Source: an uncultured Gammaproteobacteria bacterium (lineage in GTDB: Bacteria > Patescibacteriota > Patescibacteriia > Magasanikbacterales > GWA2-37-8). Taken from it: a stretch of DNA of 64,000 nt. The stretch's first letter is position 1, and each line of letters opens with the position of its first letter. The stretch is from contig CAZXML010000001.1 of NCBI GenBank assembly GCA_964641245.1, positions 45,065 to 109,064 on the forward strand, in the 5' to 3' direction. This document shows positions 51,914 to 64,000 of this stretch, piece by piece. The notes below the pieces were generated by a model. The model was given only the letters and a program-made list of their open reading frames with translations, searched no databases and was not told the origin of the DNA. Position numbers and translations under genes: made by a program.

Positions 51914-52663
51914 ATGGAATTGATAAGTGTCATCATCCCCGTCTACAACCACGCCCACACCCTAAAAAGATCCCTAGATTCTATTTTTAACCAAACCTAC
52001 CGCCCTTTAGAGGTAATCGTAGTCAACGACGGCAGCACCGACAATTTCTCCGAAGTCATGTCAAGCTGTCATCCTGAACTTGTTTCAGGATCTATCACTG
52101 TAAAAACAATCTCCCAACCCAACTCCGGCGCCCCCACCGCCCGCAACAACGGCTTCGCCCTCTCCAAAGGCGACTACGTCATCTTCTGGGACGCCGACAC
52201 CCTCGCCAACCCCCAAATGCTCCAAAAAATGTTCTCTTATTTACAAAAACACCCCGACGCTTCTTATTCCTACTCCCAATTCAAATTCGGCTGGAAAACC
52301 ATAAAAAGCCACCCCTTCGACGCTCAAAAACTAAAGCAATTAAATTACATCGACGTCACCTCCCTCATCCGCCGCCAATCTCTCAATTGTCATCCTGAAC
52401 GCAGTGAAGGATCCCTCTCTGTCTGCCCCTTCGACCCATCCCTAAAACGTTTCCAAGACTGGGACCTCTGGCTCACTCTCTTATCCCGTGGAAAAACCGG
52501 CGTCTTCATCCCCGAAGTCCTCTACGAAAAAGTAGTCGGCTCCCGCGAAGGCATCAGCACCTGGCTCCCCAGTTTTATGTATCTTCTACCCTGGAAAACC
52601 AAAGAAGTAAAAAAATACGAATCCGCCCGTTCAATCATTATAAAAAAACACAATCTATTGTAG
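51914..52663 (+). CDS. Glycosyltransferase family 2, with two in-frame partial palindromic-element insertions
   Basis: ISVIIPVYNHAHTLKRSL...LEVIVVNDGSTD, and a D.D region. The insertions encode SSCHPELVSGSITV (52063-52100) and NCHPERSEGSLSVCP (~52378-52425). Confidence 0.7.
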   Translation: MELISVIIPVYNHAHTLKRSLDSIFNQTYRPLEVIVVNDGSTDNFSEVMSSCHPELVSGSITVKTISQPNSGAPTARNNGFALSKGDYVIFWDADTLANPQMLQKMFSYLQKHPDASYSYSQFKFGWKTIKSHPFDAQKLKQLNYIDVTSLIRRQSLNCHPERSEGSLSVCPFDPSLKRFQDWDLWLTLLSRGKTGVFIPEVLYEKVVGSREGISTWLPSFMYLLPWKTKEVKKYESARSIIIKKHNLL

Positions 52664-52665
52664 TA

Positions 52666-52860
52666 TTTTGTCATCCTGAACTTGTTTCAGGATCTTTGTC
52701 CGTCAGTTGTCATCCTGTCCGTCATTTGTCATCCTGACAAAGGCCGTAGCCGCCGAAGGATCTATACCTATTAAAGAAAATCGTAAATTCGCGGCTTGTC
52801 ATCTAGTTTTTTAATTGTCATCCTGAACTTGTTTCAGGATCTATCATTTGTAAAACACCT
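52666..52860. repeat. Cluster of family-C / TGTCATCCTG hairpin elements
   Basis: At least four TGTCATCCTG termini. It matches 55184-55320. Confidence 0.75.
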
Positions 52861-52885
52861 CAGGAGAGCGTAAACTACCACCAAC

Positions 52886-53200
52886 ATGCCCACCAAAACC
52901 ATCCTCAACCGCCTCCAAAAAACCTGCGCGTGTTGCGGTAAAGCAATTCATGTCATCGTCTATTCTCCCGCAGCGAGCGGGATCCTCGACTCGTGGAGTC
53001 GGGAAAAAAAAGATTATCGCGGCGGCCATTTCTTTGGAAAACTCCCGCTATATACCAAAAAAGAGGAAGCGCGCGCCCACAGTTTTGGTTTTACAAAAGA
53101 ACTTTTTGGAAAAACAGAGGTAAGAGTCATGAAAAAAGACCCTAAGCCGTATGGGTATGTGGAGTATTGGGAGTGTCCGAAGTGTTATTGGCAAGGATAA
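52886..53200 (+). CDS. Small Cys-rich (zinc-ribbon-like) protein
   Basis: CACCGK...CPKCYW. It contains a CCCGCAGCGAGCGGGATCCTCGACTCGTGGAGTCGGG hairpin in frame. Confidence 0.45.
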   Translation: MPTKTILNRLQKTCACCGKAIHVIVYSPAASGILDSWSREKKDYRGGHFFGKLPLYTKKEEARAHSFGFTKELFGKTEVRVMKKDPKPYGYVEYWECPKCYWQG

Positions 53201-55183: not shown

Positions 55184-55340
55184 GTCATTCCCGCTTGTCA
55201 CTTGTCATCTCGCGTCTTTAACTGTCATCCTGAGCGAAGCGTAGGATCTATACCTATAAAAGAAAATCGTAAATTCGTATCTTGTCATCCTGAACTTGTT
55301 TCAGGATCTATTAGTTGTAAAACACCCCCAAAAAGCGTAA
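55184..55340. repeat. Cluster of family-D (TGTCATTCCCGC), short TGTCATC and family-C hairpin elements
   Basis: It matches the 52666-52860 cluster. Confidence 0.75.
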
Positions 55341-55352
55341 AATACAACCAAT

Positions 55353-55505
55353 ATGCCCACCAAAACAATCCTCAAACGCCTACAAAAAACCTGCGCGTGC
55401 TGCGGAAAAGCAATTCATGTTATTGTCTATTCTCCCGCAGCGAGCGGGATCCTCGACTCGTGGAGTCGGGACAAAAAAGATTATCGCGGCGGTTTTTTTA
55501 TTTAA
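55353..55505 (+). pseudogene. Truncated duplicate of the 52886-53200 Zn-ribbon gene
   Basis: MPTKTILKRLQKTCACCGKAIHVIVYSPAASGILDSWSRDKKDYRGG then a stop. It is ~90% identical to the first 50 codons of the upstream copy. Confidence 0.6.
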
Positions 55506-56385: not shown

Positions 56386-56739
56386 ATGAACACCAAAACC
56401 ACCCTCTCCATCTCCGAAGCCAGAAAAAAAATATTTGACATCGCCGAAGCAGTGCAACGCCCGGGGAATTATTATACCATTACAGAAAATGGAAAGCCAA
56501 AAGCGGTGCTGATGAGTGCGGAGGAATTTGAGTCGTGGGTAGAAACAATGGAAATTTTGAGTGACCCAAAAGCAATGAAACGGATTGAACAGGCGGAAAA
56601 GGAGCTAAGGCGCGGTGATTATGTAAGTTGGACTGATTTTAAAAAAGGATGGGGGCATACGCAAAAGACCGGTGTTATGGCATTGGCAGATAAAGGCAAA
56701 AAAAAGTATCGTGTTGGCGGTGGAAAAAAGAAGCGTTAA
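56386..56739 (+). CDS. Phd/YefM-family antitoxin
   Basis: LSISEARKKIFDIAEAV....YTITENGKPKAVLMSAEEFESW.ET.EIL. Confidence 0.7.
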   Translation: MNTKTTLSISEARKKIFDIAEAVQRPGNYYTITENGKPKAVLMSAEEFESWVETMEILSDPKAMKRIEQAEKELRRGDYVSWTDFKKGWGHTQKTGVMALADKGKKKYRVGGGKKKR

Positions 56740-56740
56740 T

Positions 56741-57004
56741 ATGCCCACAGAATTCTTTGTTAAAACACCTCCGTCAGTCCAAAAATCAATGCGTAAAATA
56801 CCTTTTCCGTGGATAGAAAGAATTAGAATGGCGATAGATAGTATTTCGATAGATCCATTCCAGGGTGAAAAAATGCTTGGACGATATAAACATGCGCGGA
56901 AAGTGCGTGTTTGGCCATATAGAATTATTTATGTTGTGGATAAGGTAAATAGAGTCGTTTCTCTGCTAGAAGTCGATCATCGGGGGAGTATGTCGTATGA
57001 TTAA
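56741..57004 (+). CDS. RelE/ParE-family toxin
   Basis: It starts 2 nt after the antitoxin stop. C-terminal YRIIYVVDKVNRVVSLLEVDHR. Confidence 0.7.
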   Translation: MPTEFFVKTPPSVQKSMRKIPFPWIERIRMAIDSISIDPFQGEKMLGRYKHARKVRVWPYRIIYVVDKVNRVVSLLEVDHRGSMSYD

Positions 57005-57183
57005 AAAGTTACAGTCTCCGCGTCTGGCCGTACAGGATAATTTATCGGGTATATAAAGACCTTGTTTTGTTGGTTATTATCCGTATTGGGCATCGGCAAG
57101 GAGTGTATTAATTTTCTTGACTTTATAGCTGAAATGGCGCAAAATTAAAGGGAATTATTTATGTATTTAACCGTGTATTTTAT

Positions 57184-58206
57184 ATGGACAAGAAAGAACT
57201 TATAGCACAAATTGAACAAACCAGAGGGTCGAAAGTTATAACCTATTTAACAAGCGATAGACAGGGGCCGGTTAATGCCCGCATTGCCATGGATATCATA
57301 CCAATTTTTAGCCGACAGCTTCGTTTAATGGGGAAGGTAAGCAAAATCGACCTTTTTCTTTATAGCTCTGGCGGCGACACCATGGTGCCTTGGCGTTTAG
57401 TTTCTATGATTCGCGAATACTGCGATACATTTTCGGTTCTTATTCCGTACAAGGCCCACAGCTCTGCAACCATGATATCATTGGGTGCGGACGAGATAGT
57501 CATGAGCGATTTATCGGAAATTTCTCCGATTGACCCATCCACGGCCAACGTTTTTAATCCAACCGATCCGCAAAATCCGCAGATGAAAATTCCAATCTCC
57601 GTGGAAGACGTGATGGCATATTTTGACTTAGCTAAAAATAAATTTGGAATAAAAAGCGATGAGCAGTTGACTGATATCTTTACCGAATTTATTGGCGCTA
57701 ACCCTCAGATTCATCCGCTCGCGTTGGGCAATGTAAATCGTACGCACAATTTAATCCGTATGTTGGCCAGACGTTTGTTGAAAAGCCATAAGTCGCCAAT
57801 GAAAGAAGATGAAATAGAAAAAGTGGTAGATTATTTTACCGAGAAATTATATTCACATCAATATTTTGTTGGCCGCAAAGAAGCCAGAGAGGACTTGAAT
57901 GTTAAGACTGTTGTTGATGCCGAAAAAAACCTGGCAAACTTAATGACCACACTTTATGATGTATACAAGAGTGAGATGGAGCTGGACAAAATGTGGGTGC
58001 CGGAAAATGAACTTGGACCAGTCATGCAAAGTAGAAAGGAGTATAAGATTGCCTGCATAGACAGTGCCGCGACAGATAATCATTTCAAACTTGCAATAGA
58101 ATTTAAACGACAACAAGTTAATATTGTACAACAAACACCTCAAGGTCCGATCCAAATTCCGCAGGAACAGGTAGGATTTAAGATTGTGGAGCAGGGGTGG
58201 AAATAA
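57184..58206 (+). CDS. SDH_sah / ClpP-fold serine peptidase (S49-like)
   Basis: IDLFLYSSGGD...PYKAHSSATMISLGADEIVMSDLSEISPIDPS matches the ClpP/SDH nucleophile-Ser region. Confidence 0.55.
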   Translation: MDKKELIAQIEQTRGSKVITYLTSDRQGPVNARIAMDIIPIFSRQLRLMGKVSKIDLFLYSSGGDTMVPWRLVSMIREYCDTFSVLIPYKAHSSATMISLGADEIVMSDLSEISPIDPSTANVFNPTDPQNPQMKIPISVEDVMAYFDLAKNKFGIKSDEQLTDIFTEFIGANPQIHPLALGNVNRTHNLIRMLARRLLKSHKSPMKEDEIEKVVDYFTEKLYSHQYFVGRKEAREDLNVKTVVDAEKNLANLMTTLYDVYKSEMELDKMWVPENELGPVMQSRKEYKIACIDSAATDNHFKLAIEFKRQQVNIVQQTPQGPIQIPQEQVGFKIVEQGWK

Positions 58207-58222
58207 AAATAATATACATCAT

Positions 58223-58918
58223 ATGACTAAATTAAAACCTTATTTTTCATTGCTAATCATTATCTTCTTATTCACTTCAATCTCGGTTCTTTTATACTTT
58301 TTAAACTCAAAATTGATAAAAGAATCAGATTTTTATGTTGCTCTAGTCACATTCTTTGTGGGTAGTTTTGTGATTTATTTGTATATTGCCCAAAAAGCTG
58401 GGTTTAAGAGGGATGCTGCAAATATACTTCTAATGGAAGTTAGATATGCTGAGAATACAATTGATCGGATGAAGGAAGGGCAACTGTTGTTAAATAATGA
58501 GAATAAATTGCTCCCGGTTAATAATTGGTCAAAGTATAATTATTTATTTATAAATGATTTAGATCGTGACGAACTTGATCTGATAAATAATTTCTATAAT
58601 AAATGTCTGCTAATTGATGAATCGCTAAATCAGTTAAGTATTTCTAAACAACTGGAACAAAAATCAGGACATATTCATAGTGCTTTAGTTAAGCTTGCAT
58701 TAGATTTAAGTCAGCAGAACCCAACTGCCGATCCGGCTGTTTTAATACAGAATTTTAATCAAACAAAAATTCTATTTATTAAAATGATATCATCTGATGG
58801 ATATGCTTTCTTGCCAGATAAACCAAAGCAGGAGTTGCTCAATGCTTTGACTAACATAGAAAAAATTACAACCAGTAGCCCAGGTACGAAATTAAAGCAA
58901 ATTGCAAACATTCGTTAA
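58223..58918 (+). CDS. Hypothetical two-TM membrane protein, translationally coupled to the upstream peptidase
   Basis: Its ORF overlaps the end of the peptidase gene. Two N-terminal TM helices, and the mod gene starts 4 nt downstream. Confidence 0.4.
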   Translation: MTKLKPYFSLLIIIFLFTSISVLLYFLNSKLIKESDFYVALVTFFVGSFVIYLYIAQKAGFKRDAANILLMEVRYAENTIDRMKEGQLLLNNENKLLPVNNWSKYNYLFINDLDRDELDLINNFYNKCLLIDESLNQLSISKQLEQKSGHIHSALVKLALDLSQQNPTADPAVLIQNFNQTKILFIKMISSDGYAFLPDKPKQELLNALTNIEKITTSSPGTKLKQIANIR

Positions 58919-58921
58919 AGT

Positions 58922-60499
58922 ATGCCCACACTCAACTGGATCGGAAAAGATAAAATTACTAATCATGACAAGGATGTGCCGTTCCGGCTGTTGAAGAAAA
59001 ATAACAAACTTTCGCTTGGGCAAAGTGATAATTTGGTTGTGGAAGGTGATAATTTGGAGGCATTAAAGGCATTAATGCCTTTTTATTATAATAAAGTAAA
59101 ATGTATCTATATTGACCCACCATATAACACCGGCAATGAGGGGTGGGTTTATAACGACAGGGTAAATTCAACAAGAATTCAGGAGTGGCTGGGTAAGGCC
59201 GTCGGACCGGAAGGGGAGGATCTTACGCGCCACGACAAGTGGTTGTGCATGATGTATCCACGGCTAAAGCTGTTAAAAGATTTATTACGGGATGACGGAG
59301 TTATTTTTATTTCCATTGATGACAATGAACATTGTAGCTTGCGAATGATTGTGGATGAAATTTTTGGTATAGAAAATTTTGTTGAATCTTTTATCTGGAA
59401 ATCTAGACTTGGAAAAGGTGCTACTTCTCAGACTACAGCCAAATTGCATGAATATGTTGTGGCTTATGCAAAAAATATCCAACAACTGGAATTTAAAACC
59501 GACAAAAGAATTAGTGTTGGTGAGGCCAAAGAAAGACTGCGACAGTGGGGGCAAGGTGATCGAAGAGAGGATCGTCCCACGATGTATTATTCTGTGTATT
59601 CAAAAAAATTTGGTAAGGTATACCCGATAAGACCAGATGGAAGTGGTGGACGATGGCGCATAAGTAAAAATAAAATGGAGGAGTTAATTTCTGGCGGGTC
59701 TGTTATTTTTGAAAAACAGAAGGATGGTCGCATCGAAGCTTATAGAATTATACCGTCTGGTTCAGAAACAAATACCGCCTATTCATCTATTCTTAATTCT
59801 GACATTGTAAAAACGACCGCACACGGTAGTACGGAATTGAAGGAGGTTTTTGGTAAGCAAATTTTTGCTTACCCTAAACCCGCCAGCCTAATCAAAGAAT
59901 TAGTTTCGCTTTGTGCTGAAAAAGACAAAGAGGCGATAATTCTCGACTCATTTGCTGGTTCCGGCACAACTGGCCATGCGGTTTTGGAATTAAATAAAGA
60001 GGACGGTGGGAATCGTAAGTTTATTTTGGTAGAAATGGAAGAAAAAATTGCCAAAGAAATTACTTCGGAAAGAATGAGGCGGGTGATCGGCGGGTATTCC
60101 TATAAAACTAATAGCGATAAGTCAGTGAAAGTTGCTGGTTTAGGTGGCGGATTTGAATATGTTGAACTGGGTTCCACGTTATTTTCTAACGCCGGAGCGA
60201 TTAGTGACAGCGTAAAATATTTTGACTTGGCCAGCTATGTATTTTTTACTGAAACGCTTACCAATTTAGAAAAGAGGAAAGTTAAAGAGCCATATTTGGG
60301 TAATTTTGCTGATTCTGATTACTATCTACTGTTCACCGGCAAGGACAAAAATATTTTGGATCGTAAGTTTTTAAAACAAATCCAAAATAAAACTAGCCGC
60401 AACGTAATTTATGCAGATAAATGTTTATTAGATGAAGATATGTTGGAAAAGTACCAAATTATTTTCAAACAAATTCCGTATCAGATTAAGGTATATTAA
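58922..60499 (+). CDS. mod: Type III R-M Mod-like beta-class N6-adenine / N4-cytosine DNA methyltransferase
   Basis: Motif IV IYIDPPYN precedes motif I LDSFAGSGTTGHAV. Confidence 0.8.
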   Translation: MPTLNWIGKDKITNHDKDVPFRLLKKNNKLSLGQSDNLVVEGDNLEALKALMPFYYNKVKCIYIDPPYNTGNEGWVYNDRVNSTRIQEWLGKAVGPEGEDLTRHDKWLCMMYPRLKLLKDLLRDDGVIFISIDDNEHCSLRMIVDEIFGIENFVESFIWKSRLGKGATSQTTAKLHEYVVAYAKNIQQLEFKTDKRISVGEAKERLRQWGQGDRREDRPTMYYSVYSKKFGKVYPIRPDGSGGRWRISKNKMEELISGGSVIFEKQKDGRIEAYRIIPSGSETNTAYSSILNSDIVKTTAHGSTELKEVFGKQIFAYPKPASLIKELVSLCAEKDKEAIILDSFAGSGTTGHAVLELNKEDGGNRKFILVEMEEKIAKEITSERMRRVIGGYSYKTNSDKSVKVAGLGGGFEYVELGSTLFSNAGAISDSVKYFDLASYVFFTETLTNLEKRKVKEPYLGNFADSDYYLLFTGKDKNILDRKFLKQIQNKTSRNVIYADKCLLDEDMLEKYQIIFKQIPYQIKVY

Positions 60500-60843
60500 T
60501 CAAGAATTTTAGGGTTAAATGTGGCGCTGTGTTCCAAGACATTGGCAATGGCGCGGATAGTGTCTTGAGCTGTGAGGGAGGTTTCGCTCAAAGAAACGAT
60601 ATAGGTGCCGCGCGACGGCGATGAAAAAACACCAGTATTTACCAGTGCGCTATGCACATCAGCGTAAGATACAAACGGGCTCATTTCCGAATTAATCCAC
60701 ATAACAGGTTTGGCAGTCCAGAATTCGGCGTCTTGGCCCAGGCAGGTTGATGTCACCAGCATCACTAACCCACTACCAGTCGATATGTTTTGTAAGTTGG
60801 AATTATAAGCTAAACCCGATGTCAGATAAATATCTTCTTTCAT
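60496..60843 (-). CDS. Hypothetical protein encoded antisense between mod and res
   Basis: 115-aa ORF in a locally GC-richer segment, convergent with mod and divergent from res. Confidence 0.35.
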   Translation of the reverse strand: MKEDIYLTSGLAYNSNLQNISTGSGLVMLVTSTCLGQDAEFWTAKPVMWINSEMSPFVSYADVHSALVNTGVFSSPSRGTYIVSLSETSLTAQDTIRAIANVLEHSATFNPKILD

Positions 60844-60897
60844 AAAAATAAATTAAGAATAAGGCGTTATTGTAACATTCATTTTAAATACAAGCAA

Positions 60898-63183
60898 ATG
60901 CAGCTTAAAAAATACCAACAAAAAGTATTAGATGCTCTGGAAAAGTATGTTCTGGAGATTAAAAAATACGACACCGCCAAGGCGGCGGGTGTGGCTTTTA
61001 TGGTCCAAGCGGATAAGCAGTATAATTGGGTGCCGGAGTTGGGGAGTAGCCCATTCGTTTGTGTAAAGGTACCTACCGGTGGAGGTAAAACAATTATCGC
61101 TTCTTCGGCTTTAGGTGTTTTGTTTAAACAGTTTGTGCCGGAGAGAAATGATCACGGATTAGTAATGTGGTTTGTGCCTTCGGACGCAATTAAAAAACAA
61201 ACCTTAGATAATTTACGTAATCGTAAGCATCCTTACCGTTCGATTTTGGATGATCGTTTTGATACCGCAGTTAAAGTTTTTGATTTATCAGAAGCCAAGA
61301 CAATGAAGAAGGATGATTTACGGGATAATGCCTGCATAGTTGTTACGACTCTAAGCGCCTTTAGGCGCACTGACAGAGAGTGGCTTAAGGTTTTTCAAGA
61401 CAACGGAAGTCTGATGACTCATTTTGAGAATGAAGAAATTGACAAGTTGGATTTTTTACAGAAAAACAAACAAGGTGGTGTGGTTTTTTCTTTGGCCAAT
61501 GTTATAAAATTATATAATCCTTTGGTGATTGTTGATGAAGGGCATAATGTCCAAACGAATTTGTCTTTTGACATGTTGAAGGAATTGAATCCGGCGTTTA
61601 TTTTGGAGTTTACTGCCACGCCAAAAGGGCAAAGCAATGTTTTGATAAATATTTCAGCTCAGGAATTGAAAGAAGAGAAAATGATTAAAATGCCAATTTA
61701 TTTGGCGAATCAAACACCTTGGCAAGATACTGTTTATGCCGGTATTGAGAAAATTAAGGAATTGGAAAAGATCACACAAAAATTAAAAGGTGAATACATA
61801 CGACCAATTATGCTTATTCAGGCGGAGCAAGAATTGGTTAATGAAAAGAAAATTTATGTAGATAAAATTGTTAAATTTTTATTGGAGGAAGCAAAAATTC
61901 CCGCTGAACAAATCGCCATTCAAACCAGTAAAACTAAGCAGTTGCCTACAGCCGAAGAATTAGCCGATAAAAAATGTCCGATAAGATATATTATTACAGT
62001 TAATGCTTTGCGTGAGGGTTGGGACTGTCCTTTCGCCTATGTTTTGGTGTCGGTATCCAATATGGGCGCCAGACTTTCGGTGGAGCAAACCATCGGTCGT
62101 CTAATGCGTTTACCGGGAGCCAAAGAAAAAGCGGACCCGGCTTTAAATTCGGCCTATGTTTTTGCTTGTACTAGGAATTTTAGTGAAACATCAGAAATGG
62201 TAATTAAGGCGTTGCAAGAAAACGGATATGAGGATGTCGTTGGTGTTGCAAACGGTGTTAATATTGTGCGGAATGTTTTTGCACGGAAAATTAAAGATAA
62301 AAATATTATTTTGCCATTATTGAATATTAAAGAAGGTGAAAAATATCGTAAGATGGATTATGTTGGAGATTTAATTGGCGATGACTCAATATTGGTTTCC
62401 GCTTCTTTTTCTGGTGGTGTTAAGCTGGAAAGTGATAGTAAAATGATAAAAATTGATATTGGTCATGAGGGTGAACTGGTGCGCGATTCTGTTGGAAAAT
62501 TGGGGCTTATTTACCATCATCAGGATTTATCGCGCGCAGAATTAGAAAGTTGGTTTATTACCAAAATTCAACGCGGCTTTATTTCCATAAAAGAAATGAG
62601 TGGATATGTCTCTAAAGCCATTGGAGTTTTATTAAGTAAGTATAGTTTAAGCGCTCTTAGTACAAATCGTTATCAGGTCAAAGAAGAAATTGATCGACAG
62701 ATTGATTTAGCGGTTGATAAACATACAAAGAAAAAATTTATTGAATTAAAAAAGTTGTTAAAATCTGAAGGCGAAGGCCTTGTGTTGGGAGCTGAAATTA
62801 GTTTACTACAATACACTAAAGATAACTTTATTAAGCACCTATACGAACGAGCTGGAGCAATGAATCGGGAAGAATTAGATTTAGCGTTTAAAATTGATAA
62901 TTCGGATAATGTTTTATGGTGGTTCCGCAATCCGGACGTTGGCGGGTTTTATATTCAAGGTTGGCTGAAGCATAAATTTTATCCGGATTTTGTTGTTAAA
63001 ACTAAAAAAGGCAATTATTTCGTTTTGGAATATAAAGGTGAACATTTAGAAGGATCGGAAGATTCGGAATATAAAATGGAGATAGGAAAAATATGGCAGG
63101 AGTTAGCAGATAAAAATTATCACTTTGAATGGGTGGACAAGAAAAATATGGTGGAGGTAGTTGATAAAATTAGCAAATTATGA
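60898..63183 (+). CDS. res: Type III restriction enzyme Res subunit (SF2 helicase plus a PD-(D/E)xK nuclease)
   Basis: Motif I KVPTGGGKT, motif II VIVDEGHN, motif III FTATP, ALREGWDCP, motif VI QTIGRLMR, and a C-terminal PD...EYK. Confidence 0.8.
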   Translation: MQLKKYQQKVLDALEKYVLEIKKYDTAKAAGVAFMVQADKQYNWVPELGSSPFVCVKVPTGGGKTIIASSALGVLFKQFVPERNDHGLVMWFVPSDAIKKQTLDNLRNRKHPYRSILDDRFDTAVKVFDLSEAKTMKKDDLRDNACIVVTTLSAFRRTDREWLKVFQDNGSLMTHFENEEIDKLDFLQKNKQGGVVFSLANVIKLYNPLVIVDEGHNVQTNLSFDMLKELNPAFILEFTATPKGQSNVLINISAQELKEEKMIKMPIYLANQTPWQDTVYAGIEKIKELEKITQKLKGEYIRPIMLIQAEQELVNEKKIYVDKIVKFLLEEAKIPAEQIAIQTSKTKQLPTAEELADKKCPIRYIITVNALREGWDCPFAYVLVSVSNMGARLSVEQTIGRLMRLPGAKEKADPALNSAYVFACTRNFSETSEMVIKALQENGYEDVVGVANGVNIVRNVFARKIKDKNIILPLLNIKEGEKYRKMDYVGDLIGDDSILVSASFSGGVKLESDSKMIKIDIGHEGELVRDSVGKLGLIYHHQDLSRAELESWFITKIQRGFISIKEMSGYVSKAIGVLLSKYSLSALSTNRYQVKEEIDRQIDLAVDKHTKKKFIELKKLLKSEGEGLVLGAEISLLQYTKDNFIKHLYERAGAMNREELDLAFKIDNSDNVLWWFRNPDVGGFYIQGWLKHKFYPDFVVKTKKGNYFVLEYKGEHLEGSEDSEYKMEIGKIWQELADKNYHFEWVDKKNMVEVVDKISKL

Positions 63184-63815
63184 ACCCTGAAACCAAAGCT
63201 AGAATCATAGTTAATTTAAAAAGATGGGTTTTTAATCACGATTTTAATTTCATCAAAGCACTAGTTGCGTTAGCTGTTTTAGTTTTTTTATGTTTAGCTC
63301 TTATTAATCAATTCGGTCCCGTAACAAAGACTAATGATGATTTTTCTATTGTTTTAAGCATGGTAAGCATGCTAGTTTTAGGCGGAACATTTTTTGCTAT
63401 TTTTTGGAATACATTAGAAACTAAAAGTTTAAAAGAGCTTCAGATGAAACAGATAAATCTTAGTTTAAAACCAATACTTATTATATTCAAGAAGCACCAC
63501 CCTAATCATGGGGATGTAGATACGATAAAAAATATTGGACTTGGAGTTGCGAATAATATTAAATTTGAAGAATTGCAAGATAGCGGTGGTTTCAAACATC
63601 AATTTAATACAAAAAAATTATTAGCACCTCAAGAAGAATATAGAGTCGAGATGAGTGTTTTGGGTAGTATGTTACCGCCAATTTTTTCTTTTATAAATTT
63701 ATTTAGAAATGAAAAGATTGTATTAAAGGTTGACTTTGAAGACATTGATGGCATGCCATATCGTACGAATTTAGAGATCGACAAAGGGGAAATTAGGATT
63801 ATTAATCAAGTTTAG
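63180..63815 (+). CDS. Hypothetical membrane protein overlapping the res stop (ATGA)
   Basis: ORF with N-terminal TM helices, translationally coupled to res. Confidence 0.35.
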   Translation: MNPETKARIIVNLKRWVFNHDFNFIKALVALAVLVFLCLALINQFGPVTKTNDDFSIVLSMVSMLVLGGTFFAIFWNTLETKSLKELQMKQINLSLKPILIIFKKHHPNHGDVDTIKNIGLGVANNIKFEELQDSGGFKHQFNTKKLLAPQEEYRVEMSVLGSMLPPIFSFINLFRNEKIVLKVDFEDIDGMPYRTNLEIDKGEIRIINQV

Positions 63816-64000
63816 TGTTTTAATCCATGTCCCAATACTACAACCCCCAACGCACATCGCGAATGTACATACCGGGCGCATCAGAACCATTCAAACTCTC
63901 TCGCTCCAAGATAGATCTTTTTTTAAACTGCCCTCGCTGTTGTGTAGATCTGTAGTTTTAAGCGGTTTTTCCTTCAAAAAGTTATCCACATTGCAAGATT

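Follow-up and report, generated by a model that had tools for sequence, protein, structure and literature searches.

A conserved Clp-fold serine protease heads a variable gene neighbourhood that includes restriction-modification systems in Patescibacteria

Why should a serine protease and small membrane proteins be packed around a Type III restriction-modification (R-M) system? The question is raised by a 64,000-nucleotide (nt) stretch of the Patescibacteriota contig CAZXML010000001.1 (positions 45,065 to 109,064), here called the window, in which six open reading frames (ORFs) lie between positions 57184 and 63815. On the plus strand, an SDH-family Clp-fold serine protease with a PF01972 match (57184-58206) is followed by a family-less protein with two N-terminal transmembrane (TM) helices and a helical bundle, here called B (58223-58918), and by the Type III N6-adenine DNA methyltransferase Mod (58922-60499; PADLOC MTase_III, PF01555). 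A lineage-restricted antisense ORF of 115 amino acids (aa) occupies the minus strand of the mod-res gap (60496-60843). The Type III Res, a superfamily 2 (SF2) helicase with a PD-(D/E)xK nuclease motif (60898-63183; PADLOC REase_III, PF04851), and a terminal 211-aa protein of a rare family with two TM helices (63180-63815) complete the block on the plus strand. A preceding sequence-only reading of the window had proposed these six ORFs as one composite defence operon; all six exist, with the coordinates it gave them. Comparison with other genomes showed that the protease is the constant first gene of the neighbourhood. A directional order recurs in which optional RadC or toxin-antitoxin genes are followed by the protease, by interchangeable small genes and, in roughly half of the loci, by R-M genes.

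The neighbourhood of the protease was compared in 116 loci, 36 from genomes and 80 from metagenomes, using crude ORF calling and single-linkage clustering. Dereplication left 54 downstream and 52 upstream flanks, and 4.5 kilobases (kb) were taken as the neighbourhood. A Type III Res lies downstream of the protease in 12 of the 54 flanks and upstream in none of the 52 (≤4.5 kb; Fisher p=2.5e-4). DNA methyltransferases of any class are also biased downstream (24/54 vs. 7/52, p=5.6e-4). The R-M genes that follow the protease are predominantly Type III Mod-Res, and Eco57I-like genes, AlwI with a methylase, and C5 and N6/N4 methyltransferases are found as well. The sequence-only reading had staked its operon on two expectations, that the linkage would not be peculiar to this genome and that the protease and TM genes would not stand apart from R-M systems in relatives. 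The synteny of protease, membrane protein and Type III R-M does recur, with fixed polarity and with at least four Res lineages, yet the protease and its partners occur without R-M in about half of the loci.

Immediately after the protease comes a gene of the same strand, mostly across a gap of <30 nt or with an overlap. It belongs to one of about eight mutually unrelated families, which are B, DUF6941 and six families without a Pfam model. In all, one to four genes from a pool of unrelated small families follow the protease, and at least 12 different partner sets separate it from the R-M genes. Of 76 dereplicated loci, 52 encode at least one small TM protein, called by a simple hydropathy rule, in the two genes that follow the protease; for the two genes upstream, the figure is 23 of 78 (p=2e-6). 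In three Type III-linked loci (L055, positions 1955-2950, L072 and L087), a 245-aa protein starting MSKQYKNPPITEVVCEFRFE, a 154-aa protein and a HEPN-like protein intervene, a set that differs from the window's B; a relative of the HEPN-like protein in L019 matches PADLOC HEPN_IX (E 1.8e-5). The downstream cargo is heterogeneous and also includes NYN and TIGR04255-like genes. In several of the R-M-free loci, DnaK, MurJ, RNase Y or FtsK comes soon after the protease.

The linkage was recovered again when the search started from Res. Homologues of Res at 55-65% identity were taken, with contigs picked on size alone, which gave four informative contexts; a fifth contig, L141, begins too near mod and was left out as uninformative. 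In all four, the protease lies 1-5 kb upstream on the same strand. A further ten or more Res hits are on contigs whose length equals that of a contig with a protease hit. The gene order is AbiEii, serpin, RadC, protease, DUF6941, a 151-aa protein, Mod, a 138-aa protein and Res in L137, and Phd, ParE, RadC, protease, a 194-aa protein, DUF6941, a 143-aa protein, Mod and Res in L139. In L142 the protease is followed by 70-aa and 54-aa proteins, a Fic/RhuM gene and Res, and in L143 Bro-N precedes the protease, four small genes, Mod, two further genes and Res. The serpin of L137 (983-2266; JAPLXL010000005.1, Nealsonbacteria), a serine-protease inhibitor encoded two genes upstream of the protease, is a single case. 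The Res of L142 (5979-9292), a close relative at 57% identity, stands without Mod and has a 326-aa RhuM/Fic-domain gene at the mod position; the system is either decaying or one in which Res serves another purpose.

Sequence distances showed strong co-evolution of Mod and Res (Spearman 0.85). The protease and Res have only a weak shared history (Spearman 0.25; Mantel r 0.43, p 0.005), and proteases that are 70-80% identical precede Res proteins at 23% to 65% identity to the window Res. Such similar proteases before divergent Res proteins, together with the many intervening gene sets, indicate that the association between the protease and R-M was formed or reshuffled many times. Thus, the repeated association points to selection on the arrangement and argues against a specific interface with one R-M enzyme.

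The protease itself matches PF01972 (SDH_protease) above threshold (E 1.7e-12; 47.4 bits, gathering cutoff 31.3), with an alignment limited to protease residues 2-126 and profile positions 36-165 of 286. The NCBIfam model Clp_like_SDH (NF047768) scores 58.1 bits against an equivalog cutoff of 250 bits. Judged by these profiles, the protease is therefore a member of a divergent SDH/Clp-fold subfamily and not the NF047768 equivalog. It has the ClpP/crotonase fold with a conserved putative nucleophile serine, and is cytoplasmic by prediction, with neither TM segment nor signal peptide. It also matches phrog_11747 (E 6e-38), a family without known function, and, among viral models, giant-virus "serine dehydrogenase proteinases". 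A search by sequence found no solved relative.

The family is large, with more than 2242 homologues at E≤1e-5, the best 120 of which are 74-95% identical to the window protease. In species-representative genomes, 36 carry it at 62-80% identity; nearly all belong to the Patescibacteria, across many classes, while a few are metagenome-assembled genomes (MAGs) with other labels. Five loci in MAGs labelled Fimivivens, Gammaproteobacteria or Bdellovibrionales (L038, L015, L026, L029 and L032) carry a protease of the type found in the candidate phyla radiation (CPR), at 64-72% identity. Mis-binned CPR contigs, and not transfer between phyla, are suggested by the L038 protease, which resembles those of L036 and L037 of the Moraniibacteriota in the alignment. 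The alignment is conserved over all 340 residues, and the invariant positions include GGD63-65, K90, H92, S93 (the putative nucleophile), D117, H177, H202 and H225. Between protease loci, identity at four-fold degenerate third positions is only 30-50%, which is saturated. This rules out recent horizontal spread as the cause of the conservation, which reflects very strong purifying selection.

Two better-known identities of the protease were rejected. The sequence-only reading had allowed that the protease might prove to be a housekeeping signal-peptide peptidase. Unlike SppA (S49), however, the window protease has no membrane anchor and no Peptidase_S49 match and is not a core gene; TM segments are found in 0 of 120 homologues by the hydropathy rule, and the distribution is sporadic and island-bound. 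A prophage head-maturation protease gives only weak matches (E 6e-5 to 6e-3), and no structural phage genes surround the CPR loci. Viral contigs hold only relatives of 35-44% identity, in heterogeneous contexts.

A distant relative is found in Escherichia coli. The protein WP_044064371.1 ("SDH family Clp fold serine proteinase", NF047768) is 35% identical over the full length and shares the GGD, HSS, PIDPS, HPLxLG and C-terminal GW motifs with the window protease. Among 5426 complete E. coli genomes, 47 carry it. In L144 (7989-8984) and L145 (4001-4996), the gene stands by itself in lambdoid prophages, on the opposite strand, flanked by the Q antiterminator and the lambda-family holin. The Q-holin interval of lambdoid phages is a known location of accessory "moron" genes. 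Like the window protease, the E. coli gene is an accessory gene in a mobile context. It differs in being solitary, with no membrane partner or adjacent R-M, and matched no PADLOC model.

The partners are far less conserved than the protease. B has no match in Pfam, PADLOC, NCBIfam or PHROGs and only 32 detectable homologues, compared with the more than 2242 of the protease. Its AlphaFold model is all helical (predicted local distance difference test, pLDDT, 91.7), with the two N-terminal TM helices followed by the helical bundle, and the fold has no match in PDB (best E 0.33). The bundle is predicted to be in the cytoplasm because a cluster of lysines and arginines follows the conserved TM helix. 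In 21 fetched loci a B homologue is one of the three genes that follow the protease, and in 15 it is the very next gene. Only in L047 is B found without the protease, among housekeeping genes.

The antisense ORF and the terminal gene are local additions rather than conserved components. Apart from identical contigs, the antisense ORF product is conserved in L012 alone (39% identity, 128 aa, E 9e-18), and it has no family above threshold in Pfam, PADLOC, NCBIfam or PHROGs. It is the only ORF in the 398-nt mod-res gap, which has none on the plus strand; in most other loci, mod and res abut or are separated by different, plus-strand genes. For the last gene, none of the fetched loci holds a homologue. 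It has no Pfam match and no PADLOC match at a meaningful E-value, and among 1.84 billion cluster representatives only 44 belong to its family at E≤1e-3. It was also compared with B as a possible paralogue, which was ruled out (hhalign probability 20%, TM region only). Of the proposed six-gene operon, the linkage stands; the block as a conserved unit does not, as B is swappable, and the antisense and terminal ORFs are restricted to certain lineages. Only 185 nt of the window remain past the last gene, and a short ORF in this remainder (63827-63955, reading MSQYYNPQRTSRMYIPGASEPFKLSRSKIDLFLNCPRCCVDL up to a stop after 42 codons) may be a truncated gene.

Mod and Res are, by all sequence criteria used, ordinary and intact members of the Type III class. 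Mod matches PADLOC MTase_III over its full length (E 2.6e-161; residues 1-524 against model positions 1-541/542) and PF01555 (E 6e-33), and its translation contains IDPPYNTG, with the DPPY motif, and FAGSGTT. Res matches PADLOC REase_III (E 6.6e-89) and PF04851 (E 6e-15), and contains PTGGGKT, VDEGHN and a C-terminal YPDF...LEYKG of the PD...EYK type. The two genes are on the same strand with mod first and res second, the Type III order, despite the 398-nt gap.

Spacing and composition largely agree with what the sequence-only reading had described. The B stop is separated from the mod ATG by 3 nt, and the start of the last gene overlaps the res stop as ATGA (-4 nt). The segment is AT-rich as claimed, with a guanine-cytosine (GC) content of 0.367 in 57184-63815 compared with 0.438 in 1-52663; the lowest values are those of B (0.305) and the last gene (0.300), while the protease, at 0.413, differs little from the host. 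The overlap between the protease ORF and the TM gene, however, is true only with a TTG start at 58184. The alignment of the 32 B homologues supports the ATG at 58223, which leaves a 16-nt spacer after the protease. A scan for promoters and terminators was uninformative, as promoter-like sites were fewer than in shuffled sequence.

Upstream of the protease on the plus strand are RadC (JAB-domain, PF04002; 55583-56248), a Phd antitoxin (56386-56739) and a ParE/RelE toxin (56741-57004), labelled on the identical Joint Genome Institute (JGI) contig L042. Its Pfam labels confirm the RadC, Phd/RelE and DUF3800 neighbours that the sequence-only reading had named. A RadC homologue is upstream of the protease in 14 fetched loci, immediately adjacent in 8, and downstream in none; it is also upstream in L137 and L139, the latter with a permuted Phd-ParE-RadC-protease order. 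Across the loci, the neighbours that speak for a defence setting are RadC, Phd/ParE, AbiEii, GmrSD, HEPN and NYN. Directly after the relE/parE stop, in another frame of the plus strand, a relE C-terminal remnant (~57001-57108, reading LRVWPYRIIYRVYKDLVLLVIIRIGHRQGVY to a stop) resembles the tail of the intact ParE/RelE gene and suggests a recombinational exchange just upstream of the protease gene. A site-specific insertion hotspot or an integron-like array was rejected for this region: there are no flanking or inter-cassette repeats in 57-64 kb, and no integrase or nearby tRNA.

Further upstream, a 211-nt direct repeat (91% identical; 52815-53025 and 55282-55492) brackets four small genes, an AntA-like gene and DUF3800 among them, in a block of ~2.5 kb. 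The 5' part of a small Cys-rich ORF (MPTKTIL.RLQKTCACCGK...) is present in both copies; the ORF is complete at the first copy but cut short at the second, and the pair looks like an insertion or duplication scar. A palindromic element of ~26 nt, TGTCATCCTGAACTTGTTTCAGGATC, has six copies between 52067 and 55324. Some of these lie inside ORFs, where they read 'CHPELVSGS', as in the glycosyltransferase gene at 51914-52663, and the element is also found upstream of RadC.

We read the region as a modular two-layer defence operon, a tentative reading to which we give a little less than an even chance. The protease and its membrane partner would form a self-contained unit in which the cytoplasmic protease either cleaves the cytoplasmic domain of the partner or is held in check by it, and thereby switches on a membrane-damaging abortive response. 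The unit would be mechanistically independent of R-M and should not need it, since it also occurs without R-M. It would have been selected repeatedly for co-transcription upstream of R-M, and phages that escape restriction would meet a second barrier. We infer such an autonomous unit, and with it an abortive-infection or toxin-activation mechanism, from the analogy with 1510-N and stomatin discussed below, the predicted cytoplasmic location of the protease and of the B domain, and the accessory-gene behaviour of the protease. A wider version is unlikely, in which the protease is the hub of a widespread new defence family that gates interchangeable membrane effectors, is wired to R-M and senses failed restriction or the Type III complex. 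If true, it would cover more than 2000 sequence clusters, mostly from CPR and with relatives in E. coli prophages, and would amount to a protease-based R-M guardian.

Several observations weigh against the two-layer operon. No PADLOC v2.0 model matches the protease, B or the antisense ORF, and eight of ten scanned proteins of the partner families have no PADLOC match; of the remaining two, one is HEPN-like and one is a marginal PD-T4-6 match (E 0.009). The structure model of the protease is only moderately confident (pLDDT 68.5), and the protease is conserved like a core protein, whereas fast evolution is usual for defence genes. CPR genomes are compact and largely co-directional, so that short gaps and a shared strand count as weak evidence for an operon, and the Fisher tests ignore kinship among loci that are phylogenetically related. 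The TM enrichment after the protease is moderate, as ~46% would be estimated for two genes from the 26.5% of small ORFs with a TM segment. Some loci run from the protease straight to housekeeping genes such as DnaK with no partner, so a membrane partner is not obligatory, and inspection across the partner families found no shared C-terminal motif resembling a cleavage site.

The core-like conservation of the protease and its heterogeneous downstream cargo, with HEPN, NYN and TIGR04255-like genes, make a serious rival of another view, in which an unrelated accessory or semi-housekeeping CPR gene happens to sit at the edge of an insertion hotspot and R-M systems and small genes accumulate downstream of it with no functional tie. 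In keeping with this view, the protease is close to the host in GC content, in contrast to the more foreign-looking B and last gene (0.30), some loci go from the protease to DnaK, MurJ or FtsK directly, and the relE remnant suggests that cassettes were exchanged by recombination upstream of the protease. However, the distribution of the protease across CPR classes is sporadic and relatives occur as morons in E. coli prophages. The asymmetry is strict, with Res never upstream (0/52), the gaps to the next gene are very small or replaced by overlaps, and TM proteins are enriched immediately downstream. Moreover, no integrase or flanking repeats mark a site-specific hotspot in the loci examined. 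Such a chance or structural neighbourhood is on the improbable side. A guardian of R-M is rather more doubtful. Here the protease module would monitor the Type III enzyme, for instance through contact with Mod or Res, and inhibition of that enzyme by a phage anti-restriction protein would free the protease to activate the membrane effector, as PrrC does for EcoprrI. The module is indeed immediately 5' of mod with a 3-nt spacer, four of four informative relatives of the window Res clade keep the protease upstream, the shared history of protease and Res is weak but significant, and the concept is established for PrrC and PARIS (PMC12707154). Nevertheless, R-M is absent from the vicinity of the protease in about half of the loci, and the E. 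coli prophage homologues are solitary. A specific interface is also hard to reconcile with proteases of 70-80% identity that precede a Res only 23% identical to that of the window, as well as Type II, IIG and IIS systems.

Proteolysis could instead act on the R-M system itself. The protease would then degrade Res or another subunit and delay or relieve restriction while R-M becomes established in a naive, unmethylated host, comparable to the degradation of HsdR by ClpXP, an established proteolytic control of restriction in Type IA and IB systems (PMC12707154, PMC4231737). This role would suit a protease that is first in its operon and an operon that appears horizontally mobile (low GC, multiple Res lineages). 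It is nonetheless very unlikely, as it leaves the variable membrane partners, the R-M-free loci and the solitary prophage homologues unexplained, and no unfoldase or ATPase partner was seen in the Pfam labels of neighbouring genes at the loci examined.

The two-layer operon thus remains the reading we prefer, and its interest lies partly in the hosts. CPR/Patescibacteria have tiny genomes with reportedly few CRISPR systems, and their defence is reported to be largely R-M. An uncharacterised protease with 62-95% identity across CPR classes and a directional link to R-M points to a layer of immunity not yet recognised or, alternatively, to an unrecognised control of R-M. The E. coli homologue makes the hypothesis directly testable in a tractable host.

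Comparison with known systems places the locus between familiar types. The R-M part is like the Type III systems of the EcoP1I/EcoP15I type in its DPPY/FxGxG Mod, its Res with SF2 and PD-(D/E)xK motifs, the position of mod 5' of res and the match to full-length PADLOC Type III models. It differs in the Clp-fold protease and membrane protein that precede mod in the same direction and in the opposite-strand ORF between mod and res; a literature search found no accessory genes of such a kind described for Type III systems. The full-text search likewise found nothing that ties PF01972, DUF6941 or SDH-type proteases to R-M or phage defence.

The closest solved relative of the window protease is 1510-N of Pyrococcus horikoshii (STOPP; PDB 2deo), described in the title of its entry as a membrane protease specific for a stomatin homolog. 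In both cases a Clp-fold serine protease is encoded beside a membrane-protein gene, and 1510-N cleaves the membrane protein of the neighbouring gene. However, 1510-N is membrane-anchored with an NfeD domain, whereas the window protease has no TM segment and a different C-terminal half of 210 aa, and the partner of 1510-N is a stomatin, whereas the partners here have no SPFH match. The window locus is therefore not of the STOPP/NfeD-stomatin kind and shares with it no more than the catalytic fold and the position of the protease gene next to one for a membrane protein.

R-M loci with abortive accessory genes have precedents in PrrC, carried by the EcoprrI Type IC locus, and PARIS, in which an accessory and potentially suicidal module is likewise tied to an R-M locus (PMC12707154). 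The components are different. PrrC is an ABC-ATPase anticodon nuclease and PARIS combines an ATPase with a Toprim nuclease, neither with homology to the window genes, whereas the accessory genes here encode a serine protease and membrane proteins; a PADLOC search of the protease, B and the last gene gave no homology to PrrC or to AriA/AriB of PARIS. PrrC and PARIS are embedded among the R-M genes, whereas the protease module precedes them and also occurs without R-M. Linkage with Type III R-M was seen in 12 of 54 protease-anchored and 4 of 4 Res-anchored loci, with about half of the protease loci free of any R-M. The accessory module of protease and partners is itself undescribed, while an R-M locus with an accessory module is of a known kind. 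If the two-layer reading is true, it would add a protease/membrane-effector type to the R-M-coupled modules that so far include PrrC and PARIS.

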